Origin: Mobula hypostoma
Taxonomy: Eukaryota
Assembly: GCF_963921235.1 (NCBI RefSeq)
Contig: NC_086097.1
Span: 63,924,001 to 63,988,000, forward strand
Direction: 5' to 3'
DNA: 64,000 nucleotides
Made by a program: the position numbers and the translations under genes. Of this stretch, positions 37,481 to 59,281 are shown one piece after another (positions within the stretch are counted from its first letter, which is position 1; each line of letters opens with the position of its first letter). The notes under the pieces were generated by a model that searched no databases, was not told the DNA's origin, and was given only the letters and a program-made list of their open reading frames with translations.

Positions 37481-39852
37481 TAGCTCATTGCCAAGGGCGC
37501 TTCTGACTCTTGCTTGTATTAAGATTCACCTAGTAATTTGGCACTCAAGACTTTAAAACAAATGAAGTATTAGAATAATAAAAGAAACAAGAAGAGAAAA
37601 ATACAAGAAAATATTTTCAAAAGCAGTGTAATGTGAAATATGGACGAATTAACTTTGATTTTTATAGAAACTGCACATCCTTGAAATGGTCCTCTTTAAT
37701 TACATGTGAACATGTAGTTGGTTTGTCAAGCCAAATATGGTAATCAATATAGAAACAGCAAACTATCACAAAGGATTAGCTAAATGTCCTGTTTATCCAA
37801 TTTTGACTCAAAATATCAACAATTCTTAACCAACCCACGCCCCCAAGAGGTGCTGCTTGACTCCCAGCAGGCTGATTGTCTGTTTTCTGAATCCATGAAA
37901 TGTGTAATTCCATTATCTGTGAAGAGACAAATGAAGTTAACAAGTCAGATGAATTGCCTTTCATCATTATGGGATGTTTTTAGTTGCAAAGGATGGGGAA
38001 GAATAGTGGTTCTGCTGAGAATATGGTGATTAATTGTTAGTTGTGGCTGATGCATCCAGTGGAGATGTATGGATAAGGACTATGATGCTAGTAAATCCAG
38101 TGCAGGTCAGGCAGCATCTGTGGAGAGGAGAGTAGAGTTGAGATTGCAGGTTGATAACCTTTCATCAGAATTGACCAGTTCCTAAAGCAAACAGAAAGGT
38201 TAATTATCTGAAATTTATTTAGATCAAAGTTGAGTCTGAAGGCCTATAATGTACATGGTAGAAGATAAGGTGCTTTTCTTTGAGCTCACATTGGATTTTG
38301 TTGAATCAGTGTTATAGGTCAATGATCAGGAGATCAGAGTTGGATAGAAAAACAAAGTGAGAGGTAGTTGGAGCTCCGGATTATCCAGATGGATGGAAAA
38401 GAGGGACTCTGCAAAGTGATTTCACGTTTTAGATTTGGTTTCTCAGATGTAGTCAAGACTATTTTGTTGATTCAAAATTGTTCTCTATCTTGAATGTTTC
38501 AGAAACTTGCAAACTTCACAGCCACCTTAGAGAGATTTGCAAAAATCCTCTACCTTTCTTTCATGAATATATTTCTTCACATCATATCACAGTCCTGAAA
38601 ATCCAAACCCTCTTTGACACTGACCCTTTGGACCTTGTAAGATCAGCTAAGGGAAACAACATCAATTGACCTTCCTCACTCAGTCGTGCGCGAGTTCTGA
38701 ATTTTTCAATATGGGATCCTCGCAGTTTTCAAAACTTTCTAGTCAGTCTAATCTCTCTCCCATAGGACAACAGGACCCATCACTAGAGTCAATCTGCTGA
38801 ACTTTCTAATGCAGTGTATCCTTCCTTTGGCAAGGAGGTCAGACCTATAGGTACTTTTCCAGTTGTGGCCTCATTAGGGTGCTATGTAATTGTAGTAAGG
38901 TGTCCTGACTCTTGCAATGATATTGCAATACTTTTTACCATGCCTCCTGTTAGCTTAAAGAGATATACATACAAGCATATGCATGCATTTCACTCTAAAG
39001 CCTTATTTCACTCCTAATCAGTAAGGCCTCATGCTGCAACCAGGCTTGTACAAAGTAAGTCATTTCAGAGGGCACAATAATCCTGAATATTTACTACCTC
39101 TTGATCTCTAGACATTTTTAAAAAAAACACTTCTCCCTTTCATTGTTGCTTTTCCTGTAAGTTAAGTTCTATCTGTACAATCTTGTGCTTTAACCTAGCC
39201 CTGATTTCATCTTGCAGAAGCCTCTCTGCATGCTATCTGCAACTTAAAACATACGTTTTTGGATCTGATGAAAATGTTAGAGCTATTTCTCCCTCTACTG
39301 GTGTTGTACAGGCATTTTATGATGATACGTTATTTCAGCATTTACATTTTTTTGTGCAACATCAGTGAGATATTTGAATCTCCACCATTTTGTGTCATAC
39401 TTGGCTTGTAATCAAAATTCTACTGAGAAGGTACCCAATGAAATTTCATATGGGAACATCTGGAAGCAGGTTTATGTTCTTTATTCAGCTCCCATGGAAG
39501 AAGGCATATGTTTCACATATTTGGTTATTTTCTTCAAATGCTTCATCTTGTGCAAGAATACCACTGTGCATGGTGAAATGAATCCCTAGTTGAAGATCAT
39601 TGAAATAGTGTGTATGCAGTGCAACATAACCCAATTTTTGTTTGTGGTCTTTACCAACTGTTTAATAGAGCAGGTGATCTGGTGTGGCACGATATCTTAT
39701 AAATATCCATGTAGCACCAATTAATGTGTTACCTATTTGAAAAATTAGTTTTCCCACAGTGTGCAGTAAAAGTGGCAGGATTAAAGTAATGATAGTAAAT
39801 GTACGTACCACCAGCATTTATAACTAATCAATTGAAATATTTCTTTTAACAG

Positions 39853-39985
39853 TGGGGAATGCCATATATGCAACAGATTGCTGGAGACCATTCAGCTGAA
39901 TGAAGATGAGTACAGTATATTAAAAGAACATGTGATGAACGATGTCATACAAGGAAATGATGTTTTTAGGAAGACAACTCCTGCG
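39853..39985 (+). CDS. PRORP: PRORP exon with zinc-binding CxxC (GECHICNRLLETIQLNEDEY...FRKTTPA)
   Basis: ttttaacag / gtaagc; 133 nt; GxCxxC and RKTTP motifs. Confidence 0.94.
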
Positions 39986-44100: not shown

Positions 44101-45425
44101 ATCCAAATATACCATATCCACTGGTTCTCCCCTATTCACTCTACTAGTTACATCCTCAAAAAATTCTATGAGATTCGTCAGACATGATTTTCCTTTCACA
44201 AATCCATGCTGACTTTGTCCGATCATTTCACCGCTTTCCAAATGTGCTGTTATCACATCCTTGATAACTGACTCCAGCAGTTTCCCCACCACCAACGTTA
44301 GGCTAACCGGTCTATAATTCCCCAGTTTCTCTCTCCCTCCTTTTTTAAAAAGTGGAGTTACATTAGCCACCCTCCAATCCTCGGGAACTAGTCCAGAATC
44401 TAACGAGTTTTGAAAAATTATCACTAATGCATCCACTATTTCTTGGGCTACTTCCTTTAAGCACTCTAGGATGCAGACCATCTGGCCCTGGGGATTTATC
44501 TGCCTTCAATCCCTTCAATTTACCTAACACCACTTCCCTACTAACATGTATTTCGCTCAGTTCCTCCATCTCACTGGACCCTCTGTCCCTTACTATTTCT
44601 GGAAGATTATTTATGTCCTCCTTAGTGAAGACAGAACCAAAGTAATTATTCAATTGGTCTGCCATGTCCTTGCTCCCCATAATCAATTCACCTATTTCTG
44701 TCTGCAGGGGACCTACATTTGTCTTTACCAGTCTTTTCCTTTTTACATATCTATAAAAGCTTTTACAGTCCGTTTTTATATTCCCTGCCAGTTTTCTCTC
44801 ATAATCTTTTTTCCCCTTCCTAATTAAGCCCTTTGTCCTCCTCTGCTGAACACTGAATTTCTCCGAGTCCTCAGGTGAGCCTTACCCCCAACATCAATAC
44901 CTTACCCCCAATACCGTGTGCTTTAAGTTTGCACACTAATCTCCTGTGTGGGACCTTGTCAAAAGCCTTTTGAAAATCCAAATATACCACATCCACTGGT
45001 TCTCCCCTATCCACCCTACTAGTTACATCCTCAAAAAATGTTCTGAAGACCACGCCAGAGTTGCCATGCATCCGATGTCGCCTCCAACTTCATTTGAAAT
45101 AGTCTCTTTGACCTTGAAGATCGCCCTCCGCAAATCATACCTGGTTTTCTGGTACAGGCCTGGGTTGCCAGACTTGAATGCCACAGATCTAGCTTTCAGC
45201 AGATGACATACCTTCTGGTTCATCCACGGCTTTTGGTTTGGGAATGTACAGTAATTGTTCGAGTCCCATCAGTCATGCTGCGAAACAACAGATATCATTC
45301 ATGTGGGTGCAAAAAACATTATCCAGATAAAAGCCGGTGGAGCATTTACCTCAGTGGAAGTAACTGTGGGATGCATCAGTGCAGATCACTGACTCTACAG
45401 CATGTCCTTGGATTTAATCTTCCCT
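41175..45425 (-). mobile_element. Rex/Babar LINE (RT region) interrupted by a CR1 insertion at 42910-45039
   Basis: [46 protein letters not shown]; host sequence resumes across the CR1. Confidence 0.88.
42910..45039 (-). mobile_element. Young CR1-clade LINE, 5'-truncated, near-intact RT (491-codon ORF plus one upstream frameshift)
   Basis: QHGFVKGKSC, YLDFQKAFD, GVPQGSVLGP, FADDTKL; (TTTCTATG)n tail. Confidence 0.95.
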
Positions 45426-57187: not shown

Positions 57188-57625
57188 ATTCAGTCAGTCA
57201 GTGGGTGCCGTCCCAAATCCGGGATGGGTGGCTATGCACCTCCATCTTCTTCGATCTTGGGACAGCACCGAGTACAGCCTCTCCTCCAGTTTGTTCTCGC
57301 TGGCCGCCTTGGCACGCCCACCACTGCCCCCGCCGATCTCAAGCCCGAGGCCATGTTGGCCTCCGGCCATGGCCGCTTCTTCAAGCTCGGCCCTTCCTTG
57401 GGCAGGTCCGGGCACACGGTGCAGCGCCCCCAAGTTCATCATATCTCTTCTAACATAGCATATGATTTTTAGACACACGGTGAGGCTTTAATCTCTTTCA
57501 CAGAAGATGGTCGTTGGCTCACAAGGAGCTCATTCACCCTTTGTCAGGTCTCGTCTTTTTTAGTCCTGCTGGGTGTCCTCACACCCTCCTCACCAGACTA
57601 AGTCCAGTGGGGGAGCCCGCCCAAG
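57188..57625 (-). mobile_element. Internally deleted RTE-like remnant hosting a captured gene fragment
   Basis: RRDMMNLG...QDRRRWR RTE-type C-terminus and (CTGA)n tail on minus strand. Confidence 0.5.
57262..57425 (-). pseudogene. Circularly permuted fragment of a CYHR1/ZFTRAF1-like first coding exon
   Basis: Encodes CTVCPDLPK then ...[12 protein letters not shown]; recalled CYHR1 reads [20 protein letters not shown]. Confidence 0.75.
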
Positions 57626-57730
57626 TCGTCGACCACTCGACCACGGTCCCCGGCCGAGCACCGGGCACCCGCCCCCCACCGAATCTCTCCAAGCATCCGG
57701 CACCTGACCGAAAACCATGGTCGAGTGAAG

Positions 57731-59173: not shown

Positions 59174-59281
59174 GAATTGCAAGATTTCCAGTCCTTCATG
59201 AAAAATCGTTTGCCTTTTGATGTTGTAATTGATGGATTAAATGTCGCCAACATCTCAGCTAAGGGTATGCAGTCCAGAATT
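59174..59281 (+). CDS. PRORP: PRORP exon starting the NYN metallonuclease domain (ELQDFQSFMKNRLPFDVVIDGLNVANISAKGMQSRI); gene continues beyond window
   Basis: tgtttag / gtgagt; 108 nt; PFDVVIDGLNVA catalytic-Asp motif. Confidence 0.94.

Follow-up and report, generated by a model that had tools for sequence, protein, structure and literature searches.

The retroposon copy in the PRORP intron

The window, by which we mean the whole stretch of 64,000 nucleotides of Mobula hypostoma DNA analysed here, carries PRORP on its forward strand. Exons matching PF16953 were located at 39848-39985 and 59174-59272, the second match being weak (E 0.02), in agreement with the PRORP intron location given in a preliminary description of this DNA. 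Antisense within this intron lies a copy of a short non-autonomous RTE retroposon, truncated by 22 nt at its 5' end, and its parts are listed in Table 1. Its GC-rich part had been read as a fragment of a CYHR1/ZFTRAF1 exon, and the letters from 57425 to 57262 on the minus strand match that reading; the GC content is 0.57-0.69, against 0.35-0.5 in the AT-rich surroundings. No target-site duplication (TSD) was found in the window copy. By itself, the locus is an ordinary dead intronic copy, and the unusual part is the family to which it belongs. The same PRORP intron also holds a young repeat of a different family, whose 394 nt (window 44488-44881) share 97% identity with L079:1-394.

Table 1 Parts of the retroposon copy in the window
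Feature	Position	Strand	Evidence
Non-autonomous RTE retroposon copy	57190..57725	-	88.3% to family consensus positions 23-577; 3.5% non-CpG divergence; PRORP exons on both sides
Fold-back hairpin, 5' arm (inverted duplicate of the adjoining downstream RTE-derived stretch)	57690..57725	-	Reverse-strand matches to RTE 5' copies
Hairpin, 3' arm (RTE 5' UTR-derived, 10/14 A-to-G changes)	57616..57671	-	Pair-by-pair count, consensus vs RTE copies
Remaining RTE 5' part (7-nt and 10-nt deletions vs RTE)	57426..57615	-	Alignments with L077, L079, L080, L131 and 15 RTE 5' copies
CYHR1 exon 1 block B, placed first (native 1520-1549 here, 1520-1559 in the family)	57396..57425	-	29/30 identical to L016
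CYHR1 exon 1 block A, placed second (native 1382-1519)	57262..57399	-	89.9% to L016; 4-nt scar of 13-nt deletion overlaps block B
Autonomous RTE 3' end and (ACTG)n tail	57190..57261	-	90-96% to RTE 3' ends

The native CYHR1 exon as donor

When searched with a pattern that put two short motifs in their native order, the 3.48-Gb genome gave a single locus (L016, at G000:C5:228.09 Mb), and the reversed-pattern control gave 0 matches. This locus contains an ATG, a CpG island and an open reading frame 65% identical to the N-terminus of Pristis pectinata ZFTRAF1 (P0001, the sole protein match). The frame ends at a GT donor located at the codon from which the Pristis protein goes on, and CYHR1 exons 2-4 follow ~91-158 kb downstream of exon 1 with 87-99% protein identity, which points to a cartilaginous fish as the host. 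By its ATG, CpG island, GT donor and downstream exons L016 is exon 1 of CYHR1/ZFTRAF1, and the origin from this gene that had been proposed was confirmed, as was a CpG-island exon as the source. The donor region has a GC content of 0.67-0.77 and a CpG o/e near 1. The exon 1 sequence upstream of block A has no second copy and was found at a single locus in the genome.

The rotated order that had been described was found in 15 of the 15 copies tested, the window copy included: two swapped blocks, block B before block A, which abut in the donor at native 1519|1520 with no base gained or lost. The native gene has the unrotated order, at its one locus only, and does not share the order of the insert. 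The consensus insert, built from 42 copies, is 178 nt long (40 + 138 nt), and 175 of the 178 nt are identical to the native exon. It is wholly exonic and sense to the RTE transcript. The near-nucleosome size suggested for the captured piece holds for this ancestral length. The 164 bp of the window copy, however, had been taken as the original length, and this was incorrect, since 13 nt are missing from the internal junction of that copy and a further 1 nt from another place in it.

A family of about 1,000 copies

The preliminary description regarded the window site as the place where a DNA circle had been captured inside an RTE remnant. The locus is instead a retrotransposed daughter of a repeat family: the insert does lie between RTE parts, but its flanks are parts of the family and not a one-off remnant. 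A 206-nt query returned 937 candidates, and 40 of the 40 scored matches cover nearly the whole query including the flanks. A pattern spanning the junction had 379 exact matches dispersed over the genome (control, 0), and the same pattern was present in 16 of 42 copies chosen by other searches. These two results together imply ~1,000 copies, an estimate that ranges roughly from 700 to 1,600 by binomial arithmetic and in which the 42 copies are mostly long.

The full element is 581 bp long, and its copies diverge 3.0% from the consensus at non-CpG sites. From 5' to 3' it consists of a hairpin head, an RTE 5' part, the rotated exon piece and an RTE 3' end with an ACTG tail. In a set of 88 copies, from which six duplicate loci and the native locus had been dropped, the 5' ends vary from position 1 to position 402. 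A TSD of at least 7 nt was found in 41 of the 85 copies having the 3' end, compared with 188 of 7140 mismatched pairs (2.6%). The copies go back to one founder, and its amplification bears the marks of target-primed reverse transcription. The lack of a poly(A) tail and TSD recorded earlier is correct for the insert alone, but the mobile element as a whole has its own tail, and nearly half of the 3'-complete copies have these duplications. Two copies, L085 and L086 (G000:C12:196.97 and 197.08 Mb), lie 100 kb apart in opposite orientation with the same flanking sequence and represent a local inverted duplication. Consensus positions 292-573 (window ~57460-57195, minus strand) hold a frame of 93 codons, which begins at an RTE ATG, crosses block A in the native frame of that block and closes at the RTE stop; this frame may be a chance product, and it is broken in the window copy.

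Sequence data of other samples were also searched. When words were sampled from a full-length copy, seven organism labels contained 0.20-0.54 of them, and the values for labels C, D, F and G (0.20-0.32) may reflect the RTE ends only. No RNA run was listed among those containing such words. Contigs were examined in 4 of the 24 runs. The junction between exon and RTE 3' end is bridged in X1 and X16 (both label A, X16 possibly an RNA run) and in X11 (label E), so the family is present in labels A and E at least, either of which may be the window's own species. In X5 (label B) a contig runs from the flank of the window copy into its 5' end and shows 1 difference in 145.

The autonomous RTE partner

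A 3'-end pattern that excluded the insert gave 175 matches; among 30 loci, 4 carried the insert, and the vicinity of the other 26 contained no 5' part of the element. Four loci were extended, of which three were 3.2-kb elements having both the element 5' part and the 3' end, and the fourth was 5'-inverted. The 5' part of the short element is 84-94% identical to four 3.2-kb RTE copies over ~210 nt, and its 3' end consensus is identical to the RTE consensus over 60 nt. The RTE 3' ends diverge by 2.3% at non-CpG sites (22 of the 30 loci used), near the value of the element. Domains for endonuclease and reverse transcriptase (PF03372, PF14529, PF00078) were detected in L079, whereas the 581-bp element has no reverse transcriptase coding. 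From its single-ORF layout, size and tail we take the partner to be an RTE; all its copies read were broken. The short elements are almost certainly a family mobilised by this RTE.

One RTE copy of 15 (L130) has the 7-nt deletion of the element. The peptide MMNLG was considered as the start of the RTE protein and rejected, for it arises from the 10-nt deletion. No empty precursor was found, and the 26 insert-free RTE 3' ends include no short empty element. Similarly, no intermediate that would order the events was seen: the insert was present in 7 of 7 matches of one search and in 29 of 30 matches to the head, the remaining one breaking off before the insert.

Several other features of the RTE copies were recorded. 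L060 and L063 (G000:C2:23.09 and 25.19 Mb) have in common a nested insert of ~275 bp near the 3' end with 98% identity, while their flanks and tail lengths differ, which indicates remobilisation of an RTE carrying the nested repeat. Both lie in the region of a local cluster of RTE 3' ends with common diagnostic variants (L059-L064, G000:C2:21.7-26.4 Mb). L078:2477-2991 (reverse strand) is an RTE copy with a 515-nt 5' inversion, a twin-priming pattern. L139 and L140 reach ~150 nt further 5' than the other RTE copies and share ~130 nt there (~988-1120), and L139 has an additional GC-rich low-complexity stretch. No ribozyme was found by Rfam in L139, L140 and L093, where the two matches fell below the gathering score. 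Directly 5' of an RTE copy, L141:1033-1122 is a short coding-like piece, possibly another host mRNA fragment fused by the RTE; its sole PDB match, MGRN1, is too weak to count (E 0.56).

Junctions of the insert

A 4-nt AAGG repeat had been pointed out at the internal junction of the window copy; as a microhomology of the circle junction it is rejected. The 13 nt concerned are kept in 95 of the 100 junctions listed and deleted in the other 5, so the repeat is the scar of a later deletion between two 8-nt near-repeats. The 13-nt deletion was observed in 7 of the 88 copies, together with one 12-nt variant, on different subfamily backgrounds. It therefore recurs between the near-repeats and does not represent the circle junction.

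All three ancestral junctions are blunt and without microhomology when compared with the RTE consensus and the native gene. Between the RTE 5' part and block B no overlap exists against 14 of the 15 RTE copies; the remaining copy is L130, which shares the 7-nt deletion and would give a 3-nt microhomology at this junction. Block A joins the RTE 3' end without overlap. Microhomology in the donor at the two circle ends, which had been proposed as a check, amounts to 0 nt at the parsimonious junction of block B with block A. A 3-nt repeat appears there only after 2 nt are dropped, and 24% of random 170-190-nt fragments of the island allow the same; 52% of random junctions have no microhomology. 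A junction longer by 1-4 nt gave 0 matches in the pattern search of the genome and was not present among the 100 junctions listed. The circle junction is not a back-splice site, as a gap of 4 nt separates the end of block B from the splice donor.

A fold-back hairpin with clustered A-to-G changes

The head of the element (its first 104 nt) had no match to RTE 5' ends in the first alignments and was found in the element only. Comparison with longer RTE 5' copies showed, however, that positions 4-58 repeat positions 77-132 in reverse complement; the latter correspond to RTE sequence from which 4 nt and 98 nt have been deleted, and both arms share these two deletions. This inverted duplication of RTE 5' sequence explains the initial mismatch. 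A captured host promoter was considered as the source of the head and rejected, since the searches gave no outside source and the head is RTE-derived. The consensus RNA forms a 55-bp hairpin (z -6.75); among single copies the fold z is -2.3 in the truncated one of the window and lies between -2.4 and -7.0 in five of full length.

The stem contains 40 Watson-Crick pairs, 14 G-U pairs and 1 mismatch. Each of the 14 G-U pairs goes back to a single A-to-G change (the 3' arm has 10 of these and the 5' arm 4), and there is in addition one G-to-A change. The ancestral state was read from what most RTE copies have (of the 15, 4 for one segment and 6 for the other), and a 4-nt gap in the stem alignment was set from the 5' arm alone. 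The 5' arm keeps T runs complementary to the A runs of the RTE, which fixes the direction of change as A-to-G. On the RNA strand, A-to-G accounts for 14 of 18 sites in the stem and T-to-C for 0 of 18. The site of pair 44/91 needs an earlier change common to both arms, and without it the count is 13 of 17. Outside the hairpin no A was changed to G, in 0 of 55 sites of the downstream RTE part and in 0 of 28 and 0 of 17 elsewhere (0 of 100 in total), while 2 of the 5 A's in the loop were changed. By Fisher's test p was 8e-12 for the stem against the 55 downstream RTE A's and 2e-6 against T-to-C.

ADAR avoids A's with a 5' G neighbour, a preference that shows weakly at most: such a neighbour precedes 3 of the 4 kept A's against 5 of the 14 edited ones. 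A subfamily with the unedited state was not seen among the family copies. Further A-to-G changes in individual copies affect 11 of 303 sites in the stem and 138 of 8642 outside (p 0.018), a slight excess that hints weakly at continued editing. Were a DNA process such as biased gene conversion responsible, T-to-C would be expected as frequently as A-to-G on one strand. Clusters of A-to-G changes are a hallmark of ADAR (PMC2873906), and clusters of this type are described from retroviral inverted repeats (PMC12925331). Judged from the sequence pattern, the cluster in the hairpin very probably reflects ADAR hyperediting that was fixed in the founder.

Origin of the founder

The explanation that we consider best, with somewhat better than even confidence, is that a piece of CYHR1 was captured at the RNA stage, that the hairpin was edited by ADAR, and that the element was spread to ~1,000 sites by RTE enzymes. 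The RTE reverse transcriptase, having begun at the RTE 3' end, would have switched to CYHR1 RNA at native 1519, gone once fully round a circular or looped-back template, halted at its entry point and then jumped back to RTE 5' RNA. On such a template the enzyme would be expected to stop exactly where its own cDNA began. Alternatively, cut RNA pieces could have been ligated before copying, which would give the same blunt joints. Double template jumps are documented in LINE reverse transcription (PMC2104539), and ligation of RNA before retrotransposition has a precedent (PMC6789731). A fold-back duplication, following the two deletions common to both arms, would have produced the 55-bp hairpin; ADAR would have converted most A's of the stem to inosine, which reverse transcription would have fixed as G. 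The CYHR1 capture and the hairpin with its editing could have come in either order, and the founder would then have been amplified in trans.

For the insert taken separately, a capture at the RNA level, true back-splicing included, is slightly favoured. It is suggested by an insert that is sense, exon-only and ends near the splice donor, by the blunt joints, and by the other changes of the founder, which are RNA-stage events. Two points speak against it: the junction is not a back-splice, and 178 nt of a GC-rich first exon fits germline microDNA.

The latter point leads to the microDNA circle that had been proposed as the mechanism. A mono-nucleosome circle from the CYHR1 CpG island would have been cut once and ligated into an RTE copy, replacing ~2.9 kb of its interior and giving the founder. 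Microhomology occurs at the circle ends of eccDNA and microDNA in over a third of cases, but here it amounts to 0 nt. The blunt joints suit end-joining, and the exact same-strand rotation corresponds to the signature published for circle reinsertion (PMC7188851). The 178 nt, the GC content of 0.67-0.77 and the CpG o/e near 1 also fit the germline circles of ~180 bp, enriched in 5' UTRs, described in PMC10581685. Against this, the insert contains no intron or other untranscribed donor bases, and the route requires a clean cut in a tiny circle together with two breaks in the RTE and zero loss from the circle. The sense orientation would be a coin toss under a DNA route. Thus the rotation, the exon source and the size agree with the earlier proposal, while the DNA nature of the circle is putative and the event belongs to the founder rather than to the window site. 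We regard a microDNA origin as possible but doubtful, at roughly half the weight given to RNA capture.

Less probable still is an origin without any circle. One break at native 1519|1520 would have left two neighbouring linear DNA fragments that were joined in swapped order into an RTE break, or else a replication fork would have changed its template three times. A single cut would account for the exact abutment, and lack of microhomology is common enough among random junctions (52%, see above). Ligation would nevertheless need both fragments, in the same orientation and in swapped order. Fork template switching normally uses microhomology, which is absent at all three joints.

A true back-spliced circRNA, a sub-case of RNA capture, is about equally unlikely. 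A circle of 180 nt from the exon 1 donor to a cryptic AG would have been copied, and the founder would later have lost 2 nt. Block A begins at an AG and block B ends just before the donor, so the 2-nt loss reconciles the junction with splicing, and in the mouse at least 33 pseudogenes with flanking LTR sequence derive from circRFWD2 (PMC4897178). However, no copy with the full junction was found in the genome pattern search or among the 100 junctions listed, and this route needs one event more than a blunt join.

An assembly chimera or a chance likeness can practically be dismissed: the window copy has no TSD and, among the matches listed, no public contig spans the internal junction by 31 nt on each side, but the 379 dispersed exact junction matches, the TSDs of many copies and the contigs of X1, X11, X16 and X5 refute it.

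Comparison with known systems

The retroposon SVA_F1 carries MAST2 exon 1, spliced and colinear, at its 5' end and is driven by L1. It is alike in that a CpG-rich first exon of the host was amplified in a non-autonomous retroposon, whereas the CYHR1 piece is rotated and RTE-driven.

The closest structural relatives are the bipartite non-autonomous RTE LINEs (Bov-A, RTESINE1/2, WALLSI3 and MAR4_MD; PMC5786205). As described there, they likewise combine the 5' part of an RTE with the 3' end of that same RTE, have no reverse transcriptase coding, end in a microsatellite tail and are mobilised in trans. The examples given in that source consist of LINE parts only and usually keep the extreme 5' end of the LINE, while the CYHR1-carrying element has a rotated host exon piece as its interior and an edited fold-back hairpin in place of that end. 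We file it as a variant working like a bipartite non-autonomous RTE LINE.

The circRNA-derived pseudogenes of mouse circRFWD2, as reported in PMC4897178, are alike in a non-colinear host exon, the lack of poly(A) and multiple copies beside retroelement sequence. The CYHR1 junction differs in lying off the splice sites, with a piece that comes from inside one exon and makes exactly one turn; moreover, its carrier is a LINE derivative with ~1,000 copies instead of tens. The eccDNA-mediated duplications of PMC7188851 share the same-strand rotation and blocks that abut in the donor. Those described there derive from segmental duplications of >1 kb, in contrast to a 178-nt piece that was then retrotransposed and for which a DNA intermediate is putative. 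LTR-mediated retrocopies (PMC5131818) and tripartite LINE chimeras (PMC2104539) are alike in that a piece of mRNA replaces the interior via two template switches and can be remobilised. The LTR retrocopies reported in PMC5131818 are colinear and show microsimilarity at 25 of 29 junctions, compared with 0 of 3 in the rotated CYHR1 element. The Rous-associated virus and the avian leukosis virus (PMC12925331) also have clustered A-to-G changes of an inverted repeat that were carried into DNA by reverse transcription. In these avian retroviral cases about half of the A's are affected, against 14 of 18 here, where the changes were fixed in a germline non-LTR founder and inherited.

The new part is the ADAR-pattern fold-back hairpin in the founder, whereas a bipartite non-autonomous RTE is of an already known kind. 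No report of an ADAR-edited non-LTR founder or of the CYHR1-carrying family was found in the open-access literature searched.

Implications

The family is a high-copy fossil of a tiny piece of a host exon permuted by one circular turn and of RNA hyperediting that a non-LTR retroposon made heritable, both of which are rarely caught in germline DNA. Since the parent RTE, the donor exon and many copies are all at hand, the order of events is obtainable from related species. Hairpin arms that are polarised relative to the parent LINE also offer an easy way to look for edited founders among other families of repeats. A bolder reading, which we consider unlikely although it deserves mention, is that the RTE enzyme copied a cellular RNA circle exactly once and that the element succeeded only after ADAR had rewritten its hairpin to G-U pairs. 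If this were true, one family would preserve, in ~1,000 inherited DNA copies, the traces of an RNA circle and of an editing event on RNA, and the near-perfect CYHR1 exon 1 in each copy could guide small RNAs against the host gene.
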